DNA of 64,000 nucleotides from an uncultured Spirochaetia bacterium (GTDB lineage: Bacteria; Desulfobacterota_D; UBA1144; Nemesobacterales; UBA2774): assembly GCA_964586675.1 (NCBI GenBank), contig CAZPHQ010000009.1, forward strand, positions 16,216 through 80,215, in the 5' to 3' direction. Position numbers and translations under genes: made by a program. Position 1 is the stretch's first letter; every line of letters begins with the position of its first letter. The notes under the pieces were generated by a model. That model did no database searches, had not been told where the DNA came from, and worked only from the letters and a program-made list of their open reading frames with translations. This document shows positions 1,046 to 62,889 of the stretch, piece after piece.

Positions 1046-1483
1046 TTACTGTCCGCTGTCCCGGGTGGAGTCGGCCGACGGAGCCTGGTCTACGGCTATG
1101 GCGATCTTGCTCAGGCCCTCGGCCTTCACAGTATCCATCACCTGAACCACCTTCCCGTGAGGTACGGTATTGTCGGCCCTGATTATGATTATGGATTCCT
1201 TGTTCTTCACTTCCTTCAGCCTCGCGGCGAGGCCATTTATATCGACGTCCTGGTCGTTGTAGAAGAGCTTTCCGTCCTGGGTCATGTTAACAGTTATCTG
1301 CTCGGCCTCTACAGGGTCCGCCGAAGTGGCCGACGGCAGATTCACATTTATCCCCCCCGACGTCGCGGCGAAGCTCAGCGTCACGGCGAAAAAGATAAGC
1401 AGGTTAAAGACCACGTCTACGATCGGCGTGAGGTCTATGCCTCCGCCCGCTGATTTGGATTGTCTTACGGGTTTGAATTTCAT
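1046..1483 (-). CDS. exbD: biopolymer transport protein ExbD/TolR
   Basis: 145 aa. Single N-terminal TM with the characteristic LTPIVDVVFNLLIFF segment. 4-nt ATGA overlap with the upstream exbB. Confidence 0.9.
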   Translation of the reverse strand: MKFKPVRQSKSAGGGIDLTPIVDVVFNLLIFFAVTLSFAATSGGINVNLPSATSADPVEAEQITVNMTQDGKLFYNDQDVDINGLAARLKEVKNKESIIIIRADNTVPHGKVVQVMDTVKAEGLSKIAIAVDQAPSADSTRDSGQ

Positions 1484-2148
1484 CCTAGTAGGTCCCTCGC
1501 ATTTTCGTTCTTTGTCAGCGCCCGCTCTTTAGCGTCCGTTATGTATTCGAGTATCTTCCGCCCTTCTTCTTCCATGAGCGCGATGAGCTCGTCGGCCTTG
1601 CCGATCGAGTACTTGTAGGCAATGAACGCGGGTATGGCCACGATGAGTCCGAACGCAGTCGTGTATAGCGCTTCGGATATGCCGCCCGCAAGCTCTGGGG
1701 GATTGACTACCGGCTTTAACGCGATGACATCGAATATTTGTATCATACCGGATATGGTTCCGAGAAGTCCGAGCAGCGTGGCGACGTTGCTTATCGCGCC
1801 GAGCCCCTCGATGTATCTGAGCAAATCGAGCGCCTCCTTCCTCCCGGCTTCCTCAATGCTTTCGGCCAGATCGTCGGCCGGCTTGTCGGCATCTTCCAGC
1901 GCGGCCACTGCGATCCTCGCCGCCGAAGAATCGTTCCCCCTCGCGTAAGCCTCGGCCTCCGTCAGCTTCCCCTGCGAAAGGAGCCTGTAAAGCTGTCCCA
2001 GAAAGTTGTCGGGTATGACTTTTTTCGGGCGCAGCGTCCACATTTTCTGAAGGAATATTCCGAGCCCGACGATAGAGCTGAGGAGTATCGGATACATAAA
2101 AAATCCGCCCTTCTGAAAAGTCTCGAATATACCGGTGTCAAAATCCAT
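1480..2148 (-). CDS. exbB: MotA/TolQ/ExbB proton-channel protein
   Basis: ORF track 1480..2244; start moved to the internal ATG at 2148 (MDFDTGIFE...), which has a GGAGG RBS. Three TM helices, MotA/TolQ/ExbB-like. Confidence 0.85.
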   Translation of the reverse strand: MDFDTGIFETFQKGGFFMYPILLSSIVGLGIFLQKMWTLRPKKVIPDNFLGQLYRLLSQGKLTEAEAYARGNDSSAARIAVAALEDADKPADDLAESIEEAGRKEALDLLRYIEGLGAISNVATLLGLLGTISGMIQIFDVIALKPVVNPPELAGGISEALYTTAFGLIVAIPAFIAYKYSIGKADELIALMEEEGRKILEYITDAKERALTKNENARDLLG

Positions 2149-2335
2149 TAATGCCTCCGTCTGTAGACTGAAAAACTGCAATACGGCAGAGAGCCCCGCC
2201 GAAGCGGCGGATTTAGAGGAATAGAATAACCCGCTGGCGGGCATAAGGTCAATTCCAATTATCTATGAACGCCGCGTCGTTAATAACCGCAGGATATTGC
2301 ATTTAACGCCGGAATCGGTAATTTATTCGGCTAAC

Positions 2336-17884: not shown

Positions 17885-18237
<353 letters not shown>

Positions 18238-25512: not shown

Positions 25513-26442
25513 TTACGATAGACGTGTCTTTCTTCTGTGTATTATCAGCGCCCCGGCAATTCCTATAATTCCGGCCAAGGCGATAAGCCCCCATTCGGAA
25601 AGCGTCGGGATCGGATTAGGCAGGACAAGCCATATTTTTTCGACCGGTATCGATTCCAGCCCATCGACCGATGCCGTTATCCTGTCCGTACCAGGCGCAG
25701 AGCCTGTGTATGTCCACGACACCTGTCCGTTCGTATCGGTCCGACAGTCGATTGGGGAGCATTCACCGCTGCTGTTGCTCGCCTGACCGAGATTCGGTCC
25801 CGCAACCACCCTGAAAAATACAGGAGTACTGACTGAAGGGGATAGGTTGTCGAGCACCGTAGCCGTGACAGTGTGCTGTGTTCCGGTATCGTTCGTCGCC
25901 GTCGGAGGGGCTAATGAAATCGTGAAGTTCGAAGTGCAAAGGTAATTTTCAACCGTGAAGCTGTAATCGCAGGTAAATGTACCGAAACTAGTCATGGCGA
26001 CCAGAACCAGGCTGCTTCCCGCAGGCACTTCGAATGAAAAGCTTTGTGGAAGACTCGATCCGATATCGCCTATGTAATTTTCGCTCAGGTCTGCCGGATT
26101 ATACGAGTTGAGATAAGCCGCGGCGAATACGTTCGTGCCGCAGGTCCCCGTATTGAAATTGACGGTTACGCAGCTCGTGCTATTGGGGGCACGGAAAGCA
26201 TGTGTCGCGTAATTGAATGTCGTACCGGCGTCGAAAGTGCCCGGGAATGCCTTTGTCGGACAAGAGCTCGGTACGGCGTCTCTGAATAATCTGCCGTTCT
26301 GGAAGGGCCCGGTAGCTGAATTAAGAGAACCGTTTATAACCTGGCCGGCGTCGGGGCACACCTGACCTGCCGCATCGTTCGCGCTGAAAACCAGTACTGA
26401 ACTAAAGATAATCCCGAACAGGATTCCGTAGATTTTCATCAT
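25513..26442 (-). CDS. secreted Cys-rich protein with IPTL-CTERM sorting signal
   Basis: N-terminal signal peptide. C-terminus ...PNPIPTLSEWGLIALAGIIGIAGALIIHRRKTRLS, giving an IPTLSEWG motif + TM helix + basic cluster (IPTL-CTERM class). GGAGGA RBS. Confidence 0.8.
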   Translation of the reverse strand: MMKIYGILFGIIFSSVLVFSANDAAGQVCPDAGQVINGSLNSATGPFQNGRLFRDAVPSSCPTKAFPGTFDAGTTFNYATHAFRAPNSTSCVTVNFNTGTCGTNVFAAAYLNSYNPADLSENYIGDIGSSLPQSFSFEVPAGSSLVLVAMTSFGTFTCDYSFTVENYLCTSNFTISLAPPTATNDTGTQHTVTATVLDNLSPSVSTPVFFRVVAGPNLGQASNSSGECSPIDCRTDTNGQVSWTYTGSAPGTDRITASVDGLESIPVEKIWLVLPNPIPTLSEWGLIALAGIIGIAGALIIHRRKTRLS

Positions 26443-47563: not shown

Positions 47564-48640
47564 CTACGTGTGCTCCTCCCAGGAGAGCATGCCGCTCCTG
47601 TATTCGGTGACCCTCGTCTCGAAGAAGTTTTTTTCCTTCCTGAGGTCTATAATCTCGCTCATCCACGGAAACGGGTTCTGTGAATGGTAGACCTTTTCGA
47701 GCCTTATACGCTCGAGCCGCCTGTCGGCGATGTAGCGGACGTACTCACTGACGAGGCCGGAATTAAGCCCGAGTATCCCCGCCGGGAGACAGTCGCGCGT
47801 GTAAGTCATTTCGAGCTCGACCGCTTTTTTGATATTGTCAGTGAGGAGCGCCTTGAACTCATTCGTCCATATACCCGGGTTCTCGTCGACGATGTTGTTT
47901 ATGAGCTCGGTGCCGAAGGCGAGGTGTATGGACTCGTCCCGGAGTATGAACTGGAACTGCTCCCCGAGCCCGGCCATCTTGTTCTGCCGGAGGAGGGACA
48001 GTATCATCGCGAAGCCGGCGTAAAAGAATATGCCCTCCATGATGACGTAGAACCCGACTAGGTCGTGAACGAAGCTCCGTATGTTGTCCTCGGTGTTCGT
48101 CGTAAAGCCGGGATCGAGGACGTTCTTCGTGAGCCTGACGACGAAATCGTCCTTCTCCTTTATCGTGGGGTTGTTTATATACATGTTGTAGACCTCGTCT
48201 GGGTCGAGGCCGAGCGTGTCGCAGCAGTAGATGAACGTGTCCGTGTGAATGGCCTCCTCGAATGCCTGGCGGAGTAGATACTGCCTGCACTCGGGGTTCG
48301 TGATATGGCGGTAGATCGAGAGCACGATGTTGTTGGCCGTGAGGCTCTCGGCCGTCGAGAAGAAGCCGAGGTTGTAGATTATCATCCGGCGCTCCTCTTC
48401 TGAAAGTGCGGCCTGGTCTTTCCACATCTCGATGTCCTTCTGCATGTTGACCTCGTCGGGCACCCAGTTGTTCGCGACGCCGACTTTATAATACTCCCGG
48501 GCCCACTTGTACTTGATCGGGAGTATCTTGTTCGGGTCCGTGACAGAGCAGTTGATTATGCGCTTGTGGTCGCCGCCCGCCTTTCCACCGCTTCCGCCGA
48601 CCTTGCCGTGGCTGCCGTTGCCGTTTTCGTTTATTGACAT
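47564..48640 (-). CDS. nrdB: ribonucleotide reductase class Ia beta subunit
   Basis: Ferritin-like di-iron fold residues present. Start at MSINENG, which has a GAGGAGG RBS. Overlaps the nrdA stop by 10 nt. Confidence 0.9.
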   Translation of the reverse strand: MSINENGNGSHGKVGGSGGKAGGDHKRIINCSVTDPNKILPIKYKWAREYYKVGVANNWVPDEVNMQKDIEMWKDQAALSEEERRMIIYNLGFFSTAESLTANNIVLSIYRHITNPECRQYLLRQAFEEAIHTDTFIYCCDTLGLDPDEVYNMYINNPTIKEKDDFVVRLTKNVLDPGFTTNTEDNIRSFVHDLVGFYVIMEGIFFYAGFAMILSLLRQNKMAGLGEQFQFILRDESIHLAFGTELINNIVDENPGIWTNEFKALLTDNIKKAVELEMTYTRDCLPAGILGLNSGLVSEYVRYIADRRLERIRLEKVYHSQNPFPWMSEIIDLRKEKNFFETRVTEYRSGMLSWEEHT

Positions 48641-51372
48641 GATTCGCATCCCTCCTCGAGGCCGCACGCGTTTAAGGTTTCGTCCGCCTGCCGGACGGTG
48701 CCGGTCGTTATCTGGTCCCTCGCCTCGACGGTGCTCTTCTCGACGCCGGACGCCCCGAGAGAGCGGAGGTAGTAGGTCGTCTTGAGGCCCGATTTCCAGG
48801 CGTAGATATACGTCTCGGAGATGCGCTCGCCGGATAAGGTATCGACGAATATGTTCACCGACTGGCTCTGGTCGATCCACTTTGACCTGTAGGCGGCGTG
48901 GAGTATCACCCACGAGGGGTCGATCTCGAATGCTCCCAGGTATTTTTCGACGAGCTTGTTCGGGAGGTCCTTCATGCCGACGATACTCCCGTCCGTCTGC
49001 TTCAGCTTTTCGAGCATGGACTTGTCCCAGAGGCCGGCTTTCCTGAGGTCGTCTATCAGGAACTGGTTCACTATCGTGAACTCGCCGCTCAGATTCGATT
49101 TGACGTAGAGGTTCTTGTATATAGGCTCTATCGAAGGGTAGCAACCCGCGATGTTGGCTATCGTCGCCGTAGGGGCGATAGCCAGGCAGTTAGAATTCCT
49201 GAGCCCATGCTTTTTGACCTTCTCACGTAGCGAGCCCCAGTCGAGCCGAGAGTTCATGCTGACTGACGTCGGCACGCCCCGCTCCTCTTCGAGCATCTTC
49301 ATCGTGTCGAGCGGAAAGAGGCCCCTGTCCCATTTCGATCCTTCGAACGATGAGTATTTTCCTCGTTCGAGCGCAAGGTCGGAAGAGGCCGAAATGGCAT
49401 GCAGGGAAACGGTCTCCATGACGAGGTCTGAAAATTCCACGGCCTCGTCGCTCGCGAAATTGAGGCCGGCCTGGTAGAGGGCGTCCTGAAACCCCATGAC
49501 GCCGAGCCCTATGGGGCGGTGAGCGAGGTTAGAGCGGCGGGTCTCTTTCGTCGGGTAGAAGTTGAGGTCGATGGAGTTATCGAGCATGCGGACCGCCGTT
49601 TTTATAGTCTCCGCGAGCGCCGCCTCGTCGAGCGCACCGTCTTTTATATGCAGGGAGAGATTGACCGAGCCGAGGTTACAGACGGCGAACTCGTCACGCG
49701 AGGTGTTGAGCGTTATCTCCGTGCAGAGGTTCGAGCTGTTGACGACGCCCTCGTGGTCCTGCGGCGAGCGGATGTTACACGGGTCTTTGAACGTGAGCCA
49801 CGGGTGGCCCGTTTCGTAGAGCATCGTTATGATCTTCCGCCAGAGCTTCTGCGCGGGGACACGCTTTGAGAGGCGTATCTCGCCCCTGTCGGCCGCGCGC
49901 TCGTATTCTTCATAACGGCGCGCGAACACCTTTCCGTAGAGGCTGTGAAGGTCGGGCGTTTCGTTCGGGGAGAAGAAAGTCCAGTCGCCCCTTTCGATGA
50001 CGCGCTTCACGAAAAGATCGGGCACCCACGCCGCGATGTTGAGGTCGTGCGTACGCCGCCTCTCGTCTCCCGTGTTCTTTCTTAGCTCGATGAAGTCCTC
50101 GAAGTCGTAGTGCCACGCTTCGAGGTAGGCGCACGTCGCGCCCCGCCGCTTCCCGCTCCGGTTTATGGCGGAGGTCGTCGAGTCCAGTATCTTGAGGAAC
50201 GGGATCACACCCTGGCTGTTGACGTTAGTGCTTCGTATCATCGCGCCCGTGCCGCGTATCGTCGTCCAGTCTATGCCTATGCCGCCCGACCACTTCGCGA
50301 GCTGTGCGACGTCGCCCATCGTCTTGAAGATGTTGTCGAGCTCGTCGGAGCAGGTGAGAAGATAGCACGAGCTCATCTGGGAATTGACCGTGCCCGAGTG
50401 GAACAGGGTAGGGGTCGAGGGGACGTATCTCATCGCCGAGATGGCGTCGTAGAACTCTATCGCCTTACGTTCTTTGTCCTCTTCGTTGAGTGCGAGGCCC
50501 ATGGCGACGCGCATCCAGAAATACTGCGGGACCTCCAGGATGTTCTGGTCGTAATCCTTCATGAGATAGCGGTCGTAGAGGGTCTGGAGGCCGAGGTATT
50601 TAAGCAGGCCGTCGCGCGAGGCGTCGAGCGCGCGGGATATGGCGTCGAGGTCGTAACCCGCAAGCCCCTCGGAATACCGGCCTTCCGCGACTCCCCTGGC
50701 GATGCTCTTCCTGAACGTCTCGCGGTATGCGGCCTCGAAGCCGTCCTCGTATTCATAGCGGCCGATGACGTCTTTGTAGAGGTCGTTGAGCAGTACGCGC
50801 GCGGCGAGGTAGGAATACGTCAAATCCGTCTCTATGCGGGAGCGGCACACCATCACGACCGCCTGGTTTATGTCCCTCGTCGTAATGCCGTCGTACATCA
50901 GCGATTTGGCCTCGTCTATGATCTCGTCGACCATCGCCGGCTCTTCGGCCCCGCTGCAGCACGACCTAATGAACCTCTCTATCTCGTATGCGTTAAACGG
51001 CTTCACCGCGCCGCTCCTCTTGCGGACGCTGATGAGCCCCTTGTTGACCTTGTCGATAAGCTCGCGCTTCTTGTCGAGACGCTTCTTTTTGTGGTCCTCG
51101 CGGTAGAGGATGTATGCGGTCGCTACTCGGACGTATCCGCGATCCGCGATCTTCTGCTCGACGAGGTCCTGTATGTTTTCGACGCCGGGAACTCTCTCGG
51201 CGAAGAGCGCCTCGAGATCTTCGAGCACGTCGTCGGTGATGGACCTCATCAGCTTTTCGTCCGACTTGCCTAGGGTCGCGGCGAAAGCCTTCGATATGGC
51301 GGCCTCGATGCGCACCCTGTCGAACTCGACTATGCGCCCGTCCCGCTTCTTGATTAGATTGATATTGCCCAT
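48631..51372 (-). CDS. nrdA: ribonucleotide reductase class Ia alpha subunit
   Basis: 913 aa. N-terminal ATP-cone(s), catalytic barrel, C-terminal CxxC tail (...EEGCESCQ). Confidence 0.95.
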   Translation of the reverse strand: MGNINLIKKRDGRIVEFDRVRIEAAISKAFAATLGKSDEKLMRSITDDVLEDLEALFAERVPGVENIQDLVEQKIADRGYVRVATAYILYREDHKKKRLDKKRELIDKVNKGLISVRKRSGAVKPFNAYEIERFIRSCCSGAEEPAMVDEIIDEAKSLMYDGITTRDINQAVVMVCRSRIETDLTYSYLAARVLLNDLYKDVIGRYEYEDGFEAAYRETFRKSIARGVAEGRYSEGLAGYDLDAISRALDASRDGLLKYLGLQTLYDRYLMKDYDQNILEVPQYFWMRVAMGLALNEEDKERKAIEFYDAISAMRYVPSTPTLFHSGTVNSQMSSCYLLTCSDELDNIFKTMGDVAQLAKWSGGIGIDWTTIRGTGAMIRSTNVNSQGVIPFLKILDSTTSAINRSGKRRGATCAYLEAWHYDFEDFIELRKNTGDERRRTHDLNIAAWVPDLFVKRVIERGDWTFFSPNETPDLHSLYGKVFARRYEEYERAADRGEIRLSKRVPAQKLWRKIITMLYETGHPWLTFKDPCNIRSPQDHEGVVNSSNLCTEITLNTSRDEFAVCNLGSVNLSLHIKDGALDEAALAETIKTAVRMLDNSIDLNFYPTKETRRSNLAHRPIGLGVMGFQDALYQAGLNFASDEAVEFSDLVMETVSLHAISASSDLALERGKYSSFEGSKWDRGLFPLDTMKMLEEERGVPTSVSMNSRLDWGSLREKVKKHGLRNSNCLAIAPTATIANIAGCYPSIEPIYKNLYVKSNLSGEFTIVNQFLIDDLRKAGLWDKSMLEKLKQTDGSIVGMKDLPNKLVEKYLGAFEIDPSWVILHAAYRSKWIDQSQSVNIFVDTLSGERISETYIYAWKSGLKTTYYLRSLGASGVEKSTVEARDQITTGTVRQADETLNACGLEEGCESCQ

Positions 51373-51539
51373 AATCCCTCCTTGCTGCGCCTCTGGGTGG
51401 CGCGTTGAATTTCAGGTTCGGGGGCGGCCGGCGATAAAATTAGCCGCGGACAGGGGGCGACGCGAGGAACCGTGAAACGGAACAGTCCCCTCTGTGGCCT
51501 TTTTTCAGTTCTGAAAGTGAGCTTGCTGTGTGAACAGAC

Positions 51540-51745
51540 ACGAGGCTCCCCCTGCAATACATCTCACAGGGCTCCCCTCGCATATATGGATAATATTTCG
51601 GCGAGACTGTTGTGTCCGTTACCAATTCGCGAGTAACCGAACACGGGAAGATCTGGCTTATGCAGGAGATAAAGCCCCTGCAATCACAGTTGCGCGACAG
51701 CGCGGGATTCTAACCCGCTTCCTCCCTGTGGATTAATTTAAATTA
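51540..51745 (-). promoter_or_regulatory. candidate cobalamin riboswitch in the nrdAB leader
   Basis: mRNA-sense GGAGGAAGCGGGUUAGAAUCCCGCGCUGUCGCGCAACUGUGA resembles the GGGAA..GGUG..AAUCC...GCUG.CCCGCAACUGUAA core. The downstream AAGCCAGAUCUUCCCG is a weak B12-box-like segment. The leader is about 360 nt. Confidence 0.45.
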
Positions 51746-51795
51746 TCACAAAGAACCCGCTATATCAAGACGGCGGTTAAGGACAATGAGGAAAA

Positions 51796-51833
51796 GAAGG
51801 CTCCCGGAAAAGCCGGGCCGGGAGCCTCTTTTA
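51796..51833 (-). terminator. intrinsic terminator after the IPTL-CTERM gene
   Basis: ggctcccgg/ccgggagcc stem followed by a U-rich run on the minus strand. Confidence 0.55.
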
Positions 51834-51841
51834 TAATCCGA

Positions 51842-52354
51842 TTAAACGCCGGCGGTCTTCCGCCTCCTCAAGACGTAAAACGCTCCGGCAAGCCCGAGCC
51901 CGGCCGCCGCGGCGAGCATGCCCCATTCCGAAAGTGTGGGAATCGGCCTGATAGAGATGCTTTCGGGCGCGTTGATGAAGGTGCAGGTGCCGCTGCCGCC
52001 CGGAGCCGGGCACTCGACGAATATGCCGCCCCGAATTGGCGTGATCTCGAGCCCGCTGACTCCACAATCAACGTCGGCCAGCACCCAGTCTGGCAAAGCG
52101 ACCTCGACTACTCGCAAGTCGTTCGTGGGATCGAGAGGCAGAAAAGCGCATTCCGATCCGGCAACCAGATCGAATTCAAAAATGTCGCCGGGCCTTTGGC
52201 CAGTGAATGTGAAAACAGTGTCTCCAGCGCCCGGGGCCGATTTGCATATCGATATACTGCAGCTCTGGGCCCGGGCTTCATCTCCCGGTGAAGGAATGAA
52301 CAGGAAAGCAGATACGGCAAGTACGAACAAAAGGGTAGGTGTCAGGGATCTCAT
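51842..52354 (-). CDS. small secreted Cys-rich protein with IPTL-CTERM sorting signal
   Basis: C-terminus ...IRPIPTLSEWGMLAAAAGLGLAGAFYVLRRRKTAGV. Start at MRSLTP with GGAGGA RBS. Confidence 0.8.
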   Translation of the reverse strand: MRSLTPTLLFVLAVSAFLFIPSPGDEARAQSCSISICKSAPGAGDTVFTFTGQRPGDIFEFDLVAGSECAFLPLDPTNDLRVVEVALPDWVLADVDCGVSGLEITPIRGGIFVECPAPGGSGTCTFINAPESISIRPIPTLSEWGMLAAAAGLGLAGAFYVLRRRKTAGV

Positions 52355-52565
52355 AACATCCTCCAGATTCATGTATTAATGAGATTATGAGATATTTACG
52401 GCAGGATTTCAATGGACTCAAGCGGGTCTGTCATTCAGGGCGCATCGATCCTCCGCATCCGCCGCTCCCGGAGAATAGCCGGGCATGATTAATACGCCTC
52501 CTTGTTACGGTATAATGGCATAGGCGGGGGCGCATAAAGGCCGGCGAAGACGCGGAGGAAATCAC

Positions 52566-57047: not shown

Positions 57048-57872
57048 TCAGACCCGGAGTCTTCTTCTCGAGAGGTACACAGCCGACACGATTCCCAGGG
57101 CTCCCGCGGCGCAAATCATCCCCCATTCCGAAAGGGTAGGTATGGGAGTCGTAAGATCGACGACTTCGCCCACCAGCTGAAAGGCGAGGCCCCCGTCGTC
57201 CGCGCCGCAGCCCTGGAGCGGCGTGAAGGCGACGCATCCCGTTCCGAACCCGTTGCCCGGGTTCTCCCATACGGCGGCGCCAAGGTCCTGAACGGTCCGC
57301 TCGAACCAGAACCACTGTCCGTTGGGCACGAAGAGCATATCGGCCTGGACGGAGACCCAGTATCTTCCGGCGGTAAGCATGCAGGGCGCCGGCAGCTCGG
57401 TGCTGAAGCTGGGGTCGAGTATGTTATCGGGGAGTACATTTCTGTAATTGCAATACCAGATTATCCCGTCCGGCCTGGCACCGCGGTTCGTATAGAACAC
57501 TATATTGAGCGACTGTATCGGGTCGGGCGTGTCGTCGTATATTCCGAGCACATTCACGCGCTCTATGCGCCATATGTCTCCTTCCGGAATTTTGAAATCG
57601 TCTGCCGCACGCGTATCGTAGATATTGAACGAGCTGTCGCTGTCTATGAAATCCTGAGAGGAGATATCGGAATCGGCGACGTCATTGAACTGGTTCCAGA
57701 GCACGTTCGGCGGCGTGGGCGGGATAAGCGGGGCGGGGTCCTGATCGCGCATTATAGGCGCGCCGTTCGCCGACGAGAGCCGGGGCAGACAGAAAATAAC
57801 GGACAGGAATGAAAGCAGCAGGGCAATACGGAGATATTTTCCGGCACCTGACAGGCCTTCCGGGTTGCGCAT
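57048..57872 (-). CDS. secreted protein with IPTL-CTERM sorting signal
   Basis: C-terminus ...TTPIPTLSEWGMICAAGALGIVSAVYLSRRRLRV. Start at MRNPEG with GGAGGA RBS. Confidence 0.8.
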   Translation of the reverse strand: MRNPEGLSGAGKYLRIALLLSFLSVIFCLPRLSSANGAPIMRDQDPAPLIPPTPPNVLWNQFNDVADSDISSQDFIDSDSSFNIYDTRAADDFKIPEGDIWRIERVNVLGIYDDTPDPIQSLNIVFYTNRGARPDGIIWYCNYRNVLPDNILDPSFSTELPAPCMLTAGRYWVSVQADMLFVPNGQWFWFERTVQDLGAAVWENPGNGFGTGCVAFTPLQGCGADDGGLAFQLVGEVVDLTTPIPTLSEWGMICAAGALGIVSAVYLSRRRLRV

Positions 57873-58113
57873 TGGAATATCCTCCACAGGGGCGGCCTGA
57901 ATGAAGCCGGCCGCTGATTAATCCTCTTCACCTCATTCTAGCAGGCGACAGTGAGCGCTTCAATAGCCCAGGAAAATCGCCCGAGCATGCGAACTGAAGT
58001 CTGAATTCGTTCGCTTTAAAGTCCGGGAACAGGCGCAGTTCACGAACCCTGAGCCGCACGAAGTATTGACCACTGTGACTTCTGCTATATCCTGAGAATA
58101 TGGAGGTACGCAG

Positions 58114-59698: not shown

Positions 59699-59905
59699 AA
59701 CCCGTGCATTGGAATATGTAATGCCGAAAACTTCACCCGTTTCTTTCGCTTATGCGAAGCCGTTATCAACACACAATTTTCTTGATTAAAATCCGAAAAT
59801 ATTCTAGAATGGACATACCGGATAATACCTGTATTAGACATAGAAGGGCTGAAACACGGCTCCCCCTGGTGCGGCTCACCTGGGTTGAGACGATCGGAGG
59901 ATTTG

Positions 59906-61780
59906 ATGAAACTGCTTCTTATTAACCCGAGATTCCCTGAAAGCTTCTGGAGCTTCAAATGGGCAGTGGACAACATAATGCCCAGGGGAATAAGGACGAT
60001 CAATCCCCCGCTCGGCCTCGCCACGCTGGCCGCGCTCTGCCCGCCCGACTGGGAAATCGAAATAGTGGACGAGAATATAGAATCTATACCACTCAATCCC
60101 ACGGCCGACCTTATCGGCATATGCGGCATGGGAGTTCAGTTCAAGCGGCAGAGCGAGCTTTTAAGATTCTACAGGAGCAAGGGGCACTATGTTGTCGCGG
60201 GCGGGAGCTATGCTTCTCTCTGCCCGGAGTATTTCGAAACCCTTGCCGATACTATAGTCGCGGGCGAGGCGGAATATATATGGAAGGAGTTCTGCAGGGA
60301 TTTCGAGAACGGCGCTCCGAAGAAGCTCTACCAGGAAACGGAGGAGGTGTCGCTCGAGGATTCCCCGACTCCGCGCTTCGATCTCTTAAAGCTCGACAGG
60401 TACCAGGCGGTGAGCCTCCAGTTCTCGCGCGGCTGCCCGTACAGGTGCGAGTTCTGCGACATCATCGTCATGTTCGGCAGAAAGCCGAGGGTGAAATCTA
60501 TGGAGCAGGTCGGGCGAGAGCTCGATGAGCTCAGGCGTCTCGGCATCAGGAACGTATTCTTCGTAGACGACAACCTCATCGGCAACAAGCCCGTTGCGAA
60601 GAAGCTGATGGCTTATCTGAGGGACTATCAGAAGCAGCATAACTATACATTCCTCTTCGGAACGGAGGCTTCGCTCAACCTCGCGCAGGACGACGAGCTT
60701 TTAAAGCTCTTCGCAGAGGCCAATTTCGGATGGGTGTTCATAGGCATCGAATCGCCGGACGAAGGCAGCCTCAAGGAAACGCTCAAGTTCCAGAACACGC
60801 GCTGTGACATACTCACCTCTATCAGGCATATTTATTCCTACGGCATAGAGGTGCTCGCCGGCTTCATAATCGGGTTCGACAACGATACCGTGAGGACGTT
60901 CGACCTCCAGTACAATTTTATTCAAAATTCCGGCATACAGGCGGCGATGATAGGCCTCCTGACAGCCGTGCCGAAAACCCCCCTTTACGAGCGGCTCGAA
61001 AAGGACGGGAGGCTTATAAAGGAAGCGAGCGGGACGGACAACACCAAGCTCGGAACGAACCTCATCCCGAAGCAGATGTCTTACGACGAAATGGTCGAGG
61101 GGTACAGGCAGCTTTACTACAAGCTCCTCGACGACGGCACGATAGCCGACAGGATTTTAAACAAGACGCGCTATATGAAAAATCCCCTTTTCAGGAGCAC
61201 GTACGACATACCGGACCAGCTGAGGTCCCTCAGGGGATTCATATGGAGAGGCATTCTCCCCGGTGGGCCCGCGAGGATCTACCATTTCCTAAGGACCTTC
61301 CCCTTCACGCAGCCGAGCCTCGTCCCTCTCGTCATACAGGACTGGACGATAGGCATATCGATGCGGAACTACATCGACAGGCATTTCATAAGGGTGCAGG
61401 ATACGGAAGAAAGCGTCGCGAGAAATCACTTCGAATCGTTCGAAAAGTCGCTCGGGAAGTATCTCAGCAAGGGGATCGTCGAGGTGTCGTTCGACAAGTA
61501 TAAGAATGCGGCGGCCAATCTCCTGATCGCGATAAAGCGGAAGCCCGACGGCGACTTCTTCGAGAGCGTCGCGCCCCACATCGAAAACGTGCTCAAGAAT
61601 ACGCCTTCGTCCATAACGCTAAAGATCGAGGAGTTTCACGACGAGCATCAGCGCCACCTCCACAGGCTCTTCAACCGCCTCTCGCGCTACGGCGACAGGA
61701 TATACATCGCCGTCCACGAGAAGCTCCGCGACAAGGTGCATATCGACTCTTCGGTTTTCAACCTCGTGCTCGAGAGCTAG
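59906..61780 (+). CDS. B12-binding radical SAM protein with C-terminal DUF4070
   Basis: N-terminal B12-binding Rossmann-like segment. CPYRCEFC radical-SAM cluster motif. Long C-terminal DUF4070-like region. GGAGGA RBS. Confidence 0.9.
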   Translation: MKLLLINPRFPESFWSFKWAVDNIMPRGIRTINPPLGLATLAALCPPDWEIEIVDENIESIPLNPTADLIGICGMGVQFKRQSELLRFYRSKGHYVVAGGSYASLCPEYFETLADTIVAGEAEYIWKEFCRDFENGAPKKLYQETEEVSLEDSPTPRFDLLKLDRYQAVSLQFSRGCPYRCEFCDIIVMFGRKPRVKSMEQVGRELDELRRLGIRNVFFVDDNLIGNKPVAKKLMAYLRDYQKQHNYTFLFGTEASLNLAQDDELLKLFAEANFGWVFIGIESPDEGSLKETLKFQNTRCDILTSIRHIYSYGIEVLAGFIIGFDNDTVRTFDLQYNFIQNSGIQAAMIGLLTAVPKTPLYERLEKDGRLIKEASGTDNTKLGTNLIPKQMSYDEMVEGYRQLYYKLLDDGTIADRILNKTRYMKNPLFRSTYDIPDQLRSLRGFIWRGILPGGPARIYHFLRTFPFTQPSLVPLVIQDWTIGISMRNYIDRHFIRVQDTEESVARNHFESFEKSLGKYLSKGIVEVSFDKYKNAAANLLIAIKRKPDGDFFESVAPHIENVLKNTPSSITLKIEEFHDEHQRHLHRLFNRLSRYGDRIYIAVHEKLRDKVHIDSSVFNLVLES

Positions 61781-61863
61781 GCTCTGACGCTTTCTCGTCC
61801 GCCGTCTTTACACGGCCCCCGGTTCGAATATAATTCGAGTATTTCGAACAGAAGGAGCTCGGC

Positions 61864-62889
61864 ATGACTGTAAATACGGACCCCTCCGCCATACTTAAAA
61901 CCGCGTTAGGCTTCTGGGAGTCGAAGGTGCTCCTGACGGCCGTCGGGCTCGGGCTCTTCACGAAGCTCGGCGACCACGCGATGACCGGGAAAGAGATAGA
62001 AGAAGCCCTGTCCCTCCATCCGCGGGGGACGTGGGATTTTCTCGACGCCCTCGTATCGATGAATTTCCTCGAACGGCACGGCAACGGCCGCGATGCGCTT
62101 TACAGGAATACTGTTGACACGCAGCGGTTCCTCGACAAGAACAGCGAATTTTACATCGGCGGTGTGATCGAAATGCTCGACGCGCGGCTATTTAGATACT
62201 GGAACGATCTCGGAGAGGCCCTCAAGACCGGGAAGCCCCAGAACGAGACCAAGCACAGCGGCACGTCCATATTCGAAGAGCTCTACCGCGACGAAGCCGG
62301 GCTCGAGCAGTTCATGGGCGCGATGGCGGGACTTTCGCGGGGGAATTTCGAGGCGCTTGCGGAAAAGTTCGATTTTTCGAGGTACAAAAACCACTGCGAC
62401 GTGGGCGGGGCGACCGGGCTCTTGTCCTCACTGGTGGCGAAGAGGCATCCGCATCTGAAAAGCGTCTCGTTCGACCTGCCTGTGGTCGAGCCGATAGCCG
62501 GGCGTCACATAGAGCGCGCCGGGCTTTCGGGCCGCGTTTCGACTGCCTCGGGCGATTTCTTCAAGGATCCGCTCCCTAAGGCAGACGTTATAACGATGGG
62601 GATGATACTCCACGACTGGAACCTCGAAAACAAGAAGCACCTGATAAGGGCCGCCTACGACGCGCTGCCCGAAGGGGGCGCGCTGGTGGCCGTCGAGAAT
62701 ATAATCGACGACGAGCGGAGGAAAAACACATTCGGCCTCCTGATGTCGCTCAACATGCTCATAGAGTTCGGGGACGCGTTCGATTTCTCGGGGGCCGACT
62801 TCAGGGAATGGTGCGGCGAGGCCGGATTCAGGGAGTTCGAGGTGATACACCTGGCCGGGCCGTGCAGCGCCGCCGTGGCATATAAATGA
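61864..62889 (+). CDS. family-2 O-methyltransferase (class I SAM-dependent, CrtF/BchU-like)
   Basis: N-terminal dimerisation domain. SAM-binding CDVGGATGLL motif. Confidence 0.9.
   Translation: MTVNTDPSAILKTALGFWESKVLLTAVGLGLFTKLGDHAMTGKEIEEALSLHPRGTWDFLDALVSMNFLERHGNGRDALYRNTVDTQRFLDKNSEFYIGGVIEMLDARLFRYWNDLGEALKTGKPQNETKHSGTSIFEELYRDEAGLEQFMGAMAGLSRGNFEALAEKFDFSRYKNHCDVGGATGLLSSLVAKRHPHLKSVSFDLPVVEPIAGRHIERAGLSGRVSTASGDFFKDPLPKADVITMGMILHDWNLENKKHLIRAAYDALPEGGALVAVENIIDDERRKNTFGLLMSLNMLIEFGDAFDFSGADFREWCGEAGFREFEVIHLAGPCSAAVAYK

Follow-up and report, generated by a model that had tools for sequence, protein, structure and literature searches.

The leader of the nrdAB operon in the window, by which we mean the whole 64-kb stretch of DNA analysed, probably carries a compact cobalamin-binding riboswitch. 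The resemblance of this leader to a cobalamin aptamer exceeds chance. A cobalamin riboswitch in the nrdA leader had already been proposed by a sequence-only reading of the window; what stood of this proposal is an aptamer-like core that is conserved far above neutral expectation, whereas the Rfam score of the window copy lies 0.3 bit under the cut-off. Binding of the ligand by this aptamer is suggested by its sequence, while the direction of regulation (less nrdAB when B12 is present) and the output step are proposals.

The operon is encoded on the minus strand. The nrdA gene (48631..51372) encodes a class I ribonucleotide reductase (RNR) alpha subunit of 913 aa, in which Pfam recognises two ATP cones along with the all-alpha and barrel domains; the open reading frame also passes NCBIfam NF005544 at 1201 bits. 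It is followed by nrdB (47564..48640; gene call in L001), which encodes the beta subunit of 358 aa and overlaps nrdA by 10 nt. According to the sequence and the list of open reading frames, the nrdA start codon (51372-51370) is preceded by the Shine-Dalgarno (SD) sequence AAGGAGGG (51383-51376). The gene upstream encodes an IPTL-CTERM protein and ends in a strong intrinsic terminator (51791..51827, minus strand), retrieved in the scan for terminator-like sites and composed of the stem AGGCUCCCGG/CCGGGAGCCU and the tract UCUUUUCC, so nrdA needs a promoter of its own. Counted from the predicted start of transcription (~51734) up to the AUG at 51372, the leader agrees with the roughly 360 nt that the first reading had given it. 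The PIPTLSEWG / IPTL-CTERM motif ends three secreted proteins in the window (51842-52372, 25513-26442 and 57048-57887, all on the minus strand), which suggests that the organism has an exosortase-type sorting system.

The enzyme had first been taken for a class Ia RNR. In class Ia, as defined here, the beta subunit has a radical-harbouring tyrosine (Y122 in E. coli) and an Asp as first metal ligand. This assignment was not borne out by NrdB, whose ...EEAIHTDTF... segment aligns with EEAVHTHTF of its best PDB matches and places a Phe at the radical-tyrosine position, while ...STAES... in the same alignment places a Glu at the first metal ligand. The top PDB matches were 4D8F and 1SYY (E~1e-142, about 65% identity), which we take to be Chlamydia trachomatis R2c, with F127 (Phe) and E89 (Glu) as the aligned positions. 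With Phe for the radical Tyr and Glu for Asp, the operon is class Ic-type, like Chlamydia R2c. The best solved relative of NrdA is 5IM3, presumably the double-ATP-cone NrdA of P. aeruginosa. As a class I nrdAB, the operon encodes a B12-independent isozyme, which is the kind of gene that a B12 regulon places under control.

Scanned with Rfam at the default gathering thresholds, the window gave no match to the Cobalamin family RF00174, because the score falls 0.3 bit short of the gathering score; the sole match was a tmRNA gene (17885-18237, plus strand; RF00023, 173 bits, full model). A permissive scan of the leader (601 nt against all 4227 families) matched RF00174 at 51768-51611 over the full model length, with 31.2 bits and E=3.8e-6, a value that rises to only about 4e-4 when rescaled to all 64 kb of the window. 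The curated gathering score of this family is 31.5 bits. When genome and metagenome collections were scanned with NrdA, ~130 loci were retrieved, among which seven distinct versions with the leader were found, 82-100% identical. Their RF00174 scores were 34.8, 33.7, 32.4, 31.2 (the window), 30.5, 30.5 and 29.4 bits; with a span of 29.4-34.8 bits, the leader family straddles the cut-off. The RF00174 search suggested as a check by the sequence-only reading thus supports its proposal in part, since the leader was matched at E=3.8e-6, whereas the window copy has 31.2 bits against the required 31.5 and only 3/7 versions pass. On the transcribed part of the match (51737-51608, a 130-nt core), the best model was the AdoCbl family RF01482, with 38.2 bits and E=3.9e-6. 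This match is local, aligning model positions 24-97 of 149 to 51726-51645 with zero non-canonical pairs, and remains far below the gathering score of 50 bits, with only half of the model covered. Nearly all strongly conserved consensus positions of RF01482 were matched, the B12 box included.

The putative aptamer core (51645..51726, minus strand) is supported by both models (RF01482, 38.2 bits; RF00174, 31.2 bits), by the minimum free energy (MFE) structure and by conservation. P3 is formed by GGGAGGA/UCUUCCC and is followed by the J3/4 junction GGAA. P4 (GCGGG/CCCGC) encloses the L4 loop UUAGAAU at 51718-51702, P5/L5 is UGUCGCGCA at 51699-51691, and P6 (51689-51653) consists of CUG/CAG and the hairpin UGCAGG/CCUGCA. 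In the RF00174 alignment, P3, the GGAA junction, the P4/L4 motif GGU..AAUCC, P5/L5 and the ACUGUGA entry into P6 are all present with high posterior probability. The strings quoted in the first reading do occur on the minus strand, GGAGGAAGCGGGUUAGAAUCCCGCGCUGUCGCGCAACUGUGAUUGCAGGGG at 51725..51675 and AAGCCAGAUCUUCCCG at 51659..51644. The second had been placed about 60 nt after the first, which holds when the distance is taken from start to start (66 nt) but not from end to start, as it begins 15 nt past the end of the first. This B12-box-like segment AAGCCAGAUCUUCCCG (51644..51659), which would provide J6/3 and the 3' strand of P3, is invariant in 7/7 versions. Its identification as a B12 box is probably correct, since RF01482 aligns exactly the same segment, AAGCCAGAUCUUCCC, to the consensus AAGUCAGGUCUUUug, with a good fit. 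Folded as a 94-nt RNA, the aptamer has an MFE of -37.8 kcal/mol (z=-3.1) and reproduces the expected junction unaided. Taken together, the sequence and its predicted fold indicate that the four-way core (P3-P4-P5-P6) is intact and that P1/P2 and the P6 extension are missing or reduced.

The missing periphery and the promoter have to be considered together. In the alignment of the seven versions, we inferred a sigma-70-type promoter at 51740..51768 (minus strand), with a -35 element TTGATA (51768-51763), a 17-nt spacer, a TG extension (51748-51747) and a -10 element TAATTT (51745-51740). TTGATA-17-TGnTAATTT corresponds to an extended -10 promoter, and the -10 reads TAGCTT in relatives. The seven-way alignment shows GTCTTGATATAG and CTTTGTGATA conserved, with the intervening 6-7 nt varying freely, and the sequence upstream of ~51773 is unconserved among the seven versions. 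A simple promoter scan did not call a promoter at 51740..51768. The terminator sits immediately upstream and leaves too little space for a second promoter. From these sequence features, the most likely start of transcription is ~51734, just 5' of the aptamer. RF00174 aligns its P1/P2 to 51768-51731 in every copy, with an inconsistent 3' partner. We found no P1/P2 there: the segment shows the conservation pattern of a promoter, and only a 3-bp CAC/GUG helix is left. The aptamer is compact because the P1/P2 aligned by Rfam is better read as the promoter, and the score lies below the cut-off in part because the model, at full length, has to accommodate promoter DNA as its P1/P2. The absence of P1/P2 depends on the inferred transcription start.

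The 3' half of RF00174 was put in three different places among the copies, so part of its score is spurious. Its B12 box was placed on GUGUUCGGUUACUCGCG in the window and on ACACAGUAGUCUCGCC in relatives, neither of which is the RF01482 box. The P1/P2 and B12-box placements of RF00174 were therefore rejected, as they vary between copies; the P1/P2 placement overlaps the promoter, and one of the B12-box placements overlaps a helix with a compensatory change. Further departures from the models concern J6/3, which is two nt shorter than the RF00174 consensus, P6, which has no extension and just a hairpin with a 10-nt loop, and L5, which reads UCGCG against CCCCCG in the model and is one nt shorter than in RF00174. 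We also observed an imperfect palindrome, TGTGATAATTTAAATTAATCCACA, at 51725-51750 (minus strand), spanning the -10 element and the predicted start; its centre shows a compensatory change in relatives (C-G vs U-A). It could be an operator for some repressor or, if transcription starts further upstream, the P2-like hairpin of Rfam.

Conservation of the leader peaks at the aptamer. In comparisons of the window with its relatives, identity reaches 97-99% in the aptamer core but only 55-68% at the four-fold synonymous sites of nrdA, a difference that shows the core to be under strong selection. Identity is 94-97% in the hairpin that follows the aptamer, 75-85% in the remaining 240 nt, 73-82% in the promoter and 41-47% just upstream of it. 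The 90 nt with the highest conservation in the leader are exactly those of the aptamer. Judged by sequence comparison, the leader clearly behaves as a functional RNA. Every pair of P3, P4 and the P5/P6 region is invariant across the seven versions, so the aptamer provides no covariation evidence, for or against. A covariance model of our own, built on the aptamer and the hairpin, retrieved no further or divergent copy in ~870 kb, which included the nrdA loci of relatives at 50-60% identity. Among the loci searched, copies of the leader are confined to one narrow clade. The NrdA of the window is identical on several metagenome contigs, and the nearest genomes are Candidatus Dadabacteria metagenome-assembled genomes (MAGs; 89-90% NrdA identity) together with one Spirochaetia-labelled and one Thermodesulfobacteriota-labelled MAG. 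The next relatives of NrdA (~60%) belong to Krumholzibacteriia/Latescibacterota. In the two MAGs with other labels, L004 (CAZUDM010000001.1, 'Spirochaetia') and L014 (JAWKQD010000015.1, 'Thermodesulfobacteriota'), nrdA and its leader are 85-94% identical to those of the Dadabacteria MAGs; these labels probably reflect inconsistent taxonomy or binning, not transfer. The nrdA frame is broken after 294 codons in L014 (L014:3001-5715) and after 182 codons in L062 (L062:1501-4081), with the leader intact in both. Either assembly errors in these MAG and metagenome contigs or pseudogenes would account for the broken frames.

Right after the aptamer, the consensus fold contains a P13-like hairpin of 12 bp (GUGUUCGGUUACU/GGUAACGGACAC; 51612..51644, minus strand), which is invariant in the seven versions save one broken pair in L004. 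Its loop UCGCGAAUUG (51632-51623) holds CGCGA, complementary to the UCGCG of L5 (51697-51693). This 5-nt complementarity between L5 and L13 is intact in 7/7 versions; the chance of a 5-nt complement is ~0.005, and the pairing is invariant and thus without covariation. The same arrangement is seen in solved cobalamin riboswitch structures, where L5 and L13 form a kissing loop. L5 and the CGCGA loop are thus a candidate kissing loop, as modelled from the predicted structure. The first GUG of the hairpin can instead close P1 with CAC (51730-51728).

The rest of the leader is folded less uniformly. Helix Ha (51559..51610, minus strand) pairs ACAGUCUCGC (51610-51601) with GUGAGAUGU (51567-51559), and its pair 188/238 changes from C-G through U-G to U-A across versions, a compensatory series; the Ha segment is what RF00174 takes for its B12 box in relatives. 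Ha is mutually exclusive with a local hairpin at 51581-51540. The two structures compete for a near-invariant block, GCGAGGGGAGCCCUGUGAGAUGUAUUGCAGGGGGAGCCUCGU (51540..51581), also recorded as direct repeat D1, which single-sequence folds assign to the local hairpin and the consensus fold to the 3' strand of Ha and the 5' strand of a second helix, Hb. A C-rich segment, CGGUUCCUCGCGUCGCCCCCUGU (51450..51472, minus strand), may serve either as the 3' strand of Hb (with 51555-51539) or as a candidate anti-aptamer. It is complementary to the 5' strand of the aptamer, namely to GAGGAAGCG at 51724-51716 and to ACAGGG at 51729-51724 (inverted repeat I4), and relatives keep 7-8/9 and 5-6/6 of these pairs, respectively. 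The unconstrained MFE structure of the full leader prefers this pairing and breaks the aptamer, and an anti-aptamer role of 51450..51472 is suggested by the models. Just upstream of the ribosome-binding site (RBS), the hairpin He (GCGCC/GGCGC; 51387..51403) pairs 51403-51399 with 51391-51387 and shows one compensatory change, G-C to A-U, in L004. Compensatory changes thus occur in three platform helices (Ha, Hc and He), and the observed counts were reached by 5/500 and 19/500 shuffles. Structure prediction indicates that alternative folds of the leader exist. An 18-nt quasi-duplication is present in the leader, with copies UGCGAGGGGAGCCCUGUG and UGCAGGGGGAGCCUCGUG (51539-51582, minus strand), and the 10-mer AUUGCAGGGG occurs both in P6 of the aptamer (51675-51684, minus strand) and again in the platform; these internal repeats suggest strand-swapping alternative structures.

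No recognisable expression platform, that is, a terminator or an RBS-sequestering helix, was found. The terminator scan detected no intrinsic terminator within the leader. Constrained partition functions of the seven leaders showed no consistent change in SD/AUG accessibility between folds with the aptamer forced and folds with the aptamer blocked, and a switch that acts by sequestering the RBS was rejected on these folds. Since neither a terminator nor consistent masking of the RBS is seen, regulation may act through Rho-dependent termination or mRNA decay.

These elements can be combined into a tentative mechanism. The nrdAB RNA would start at ~51734 and fold into the four-way core at 51726-51645, with the GGAA junction, L4 and the B12 box AAGCCAGAUCUUCCC, a P1 of 3 bp only and neither P2 nor a P6 extension. 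The hairpin at 51644-51612 would present CGCGA to the UCGCG of L5, and cobalamin would lock the kissing loop and the P3 helix. The locked aptamer would then withhold its purine-rich 5' strand from the C-rich segment at 51472-51450 and thereby re-route the folding of the 270-nt structured platform. When B12 is available, nrdAB expression would go down and a B12-dependent reductase would take over, with an output that may consist of Rho-dependent termination or mRNA decay instead of simple attenuation. In its strictest form, this would be a minimal, terminator-less cobalamin riboswitch that starts at P3, has an anti-aptamer reach of ~270 nt (51729-51716 with 51472-51450) and switches a Mn/Fe class Ic RNR off in favour of the B12 enzyme. 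We regard this complete reading as possible but doubtful. If it is true, a riboswitch would for the first time connect B12 with a class Ic RNR, and the element would offer a natural minimal scaffold for aptamer engineering.

The same observations have to be weighed against readings in which B12 is not sensed. A structured 5'UTR that merely resembles a cobalamin aptamer, and that tunes the stability or translation of nrdAB mRNA through protein, sRNA or RNase sites, is a serious rival, if on balance an unlikely one. The long 5'UTR of nrdAB in P. aeruginosa is reported to act in this way (PMC12528414), and the NrdA of the window is closest to the P. aeruginosa type, whose predicted riboswitch ignored B12 (PMC12528414). 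Sub-threshold or borderline Rfam scores, the inconsistent alignment of the 3' half, the absence of P1/P2 and of covariation, the failure to recover an expression-platform logic and the lack of B12 genes within ~84 kb would all be expected of such a leader. It explains less well why two independent models of the clan match the same core at E~4e-6, while the Pseudomonas region has no Rfam match (PMC12528414), why nearly all strongly conserved core nucleotides are present and why the peak of conservation is the aptamer. It is also conceivable, with still lower probability, that the element descends from a cobalamin aptamer and has an altered specificity, for a particular corrinoid or another ligand, or that it is an ON switch. 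The selectivity of cobalamin riboswitches depends on peripheral and junction elements, and the periphery is atypical here (short P6, no P2, J6/3 two nt shorter, L5 UCGCG instead of CCCCCG). We found no positive evidence for another ligand, and nrdAB is the classic setting of B12-OFF control (PMC545781), which argues against both variants.

Two further explanations were considered. The conserved DNA might be mainly a promoter with a protein operator, such as NrdR boxes or the site of another repressor, with an incidental likeness to an RNA; this is very improbable. An operator would fit the imperfect palindrome TGTGATA...ATCCACA over the -10 and start region, with its one compensatory change, and nrd promoters are commonly controlled by NrdR (PMC13584703). 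This control involves two 16-bp boxes (C4, A6, A8, T9, T11, G13) close to the promoter and separated by 15-16 bp (PMC13584703). A consensus NrdR box was absent at <=3 mismatches, and so was the core pattern CNANATNTNG in 51373-51900; since neither the consensus box nor the six-position core occurs in promoter or leader, an NrdR-controlled promoter was rejected. Any operator would also have to account for conservation that continues for 360 nt within the transcript and is highest at the aptamer, not at the promoter. Least probable of all is attenuation mediated by a leader peptide translated from the conserved AUG at 51583, where a 47-codon open reading frame begins. Only the first seven codons are shared among versions and are followed by 47, 27 or 24 unrelated codons, no Shine-Dalgarno sequence precedes this AUG, and the leader peptide was rejected because the frame is not conserved.

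The genomic surroundings of the operon add little on B12. A genuine element would, according to the sequence-only reading, imply a class II NrdJ and uptake or synthesis of B12 in this organism. No nrdJ, btuB or cob genes were detected by Pfam annotation and look-ups in the 64-kb window and ~10 kb beyond each end (~84 kb), and a literature search on B12 or RNR in Dadabacteria yielded nothing useful. A radical SAM and DUF4070 protein of 631 aa (59885-61780, plus strand) is followed by an O-methyltransferase, the pair spanning 59885-62889. The radical SAM/DUF4070 protein matches many families of B12-binding radical SAM methylases weakly and below threshold, and it has no match to a B12-binding domain; it is possible, from its sequence, that it uses cobalamin. 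An ExbB/ExbD pair is encoded at the start of the window (1480-2244, minus strand, and L134:8750-9852), a sequence-based indication that the organism has a TonB-type energy transducer, and no TonB-dependent receptor such as BtuB was found within 10 kb.

If the predicted riboswitch is functional, uncultured Dadabacteria-type organisms would be able to sense cobalamin and to switch between two reductases, the class Ic enzyme that depends on O2 and Mn/Fe and a B12-dependent one. Their genomes would then be predicted to contain nrdJ and a supply of B12, by uptake or synthesis, which bears on their ecology and on cross-feeding. The case also indicates that a plausible member of the family can fall short of the Rfam cut-off by 0.3 bit and that annotation pipelines would miss such a copy. 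The regulatory principle is about twenty years old, and the gain is therefore incremental. The present case matches the known logic and differs in its little-studied lineage, its class Ic-type RNR, its compact aptamer scoring at threshold and its long, unconventional platform.

Among known elements, the leader is most directly comparable to the Rfam families. With RF00174 (clan CL00101) it shares the GGAA junction, the P4/L4 hairpin 'GGU..AAUCC', the P5/P6 entry 'GCUG..CGCAACUGUGA', a putative CAG-containing B12 box and the 5' leader position before a gene of the B12 regulon; it differs in lacking a credible P1/P2 or P6 extension and in its shorter L5 and J6/3. The transcribed core is best described by RF01482, which likewise has a short P6 hairpin and to whose consensus AAGUCAGGUCUUUug the putative B12 box AAGCCAGAUCUUCCC aligns, but model positions 1-23 and 98-149 have no counterpart in the present leader.

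Control of B12-independent RNRs by B12, invoked in the sequence-only reading, has precedents. Comparative genomics has revealed B12 elements before such RNRs (PMC545781 and its reference 26), and the B12-element regulon context of RNRs goes back to Borovok 2006 and Vitreschak 2003, in so far as these are cited in PMC12528414. In Streptomyces, which also has NrdJ, a cobalamin riboswitch in the long leader of nrdABS represses the class I RNR when coenzyme B12 is given (Borovok et al. 2006, J Bacteriol 188:2512, as summarised in PMC12528414). On that summary, the riboswitch there and the probable one described here both lie in a long leader before a class I RNR operon whose enzyme depends on oxygen. 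They differ in that the Streptomyces enzyme is class Ia according to the title of the paper, whereas the present one is class Ic-type and comes from Dadabacteria-type MAGs, the comparison being one of descriptions rather than of sequences. Desulfovibrio vulgaris and Desulfuromonas have B12-elements upstream of nrdDG in genomes with NrdJ (PMC545781). There too a B12 element precedes a B12-independent RNR isozyme, but it is the anaerobic class III enzyme, in contrast to the aerobic class I (Ic-type) RNR described here. The nrdAB operon of P. aeruginosa likewise has a long 5'UTR before a double-ATP-cone NrdA, in which a cobalamin riboswitch was predicted and gave no B12 response in reporter assays (PMC12528414). 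That prediction was based on motifs, with partial agreement to the B12 box and no Rfam match in the region (PMC12528414), whereas the present element is matched at E~4e-6 by two cobalamin models of Rfam and hardly varies among genomes.
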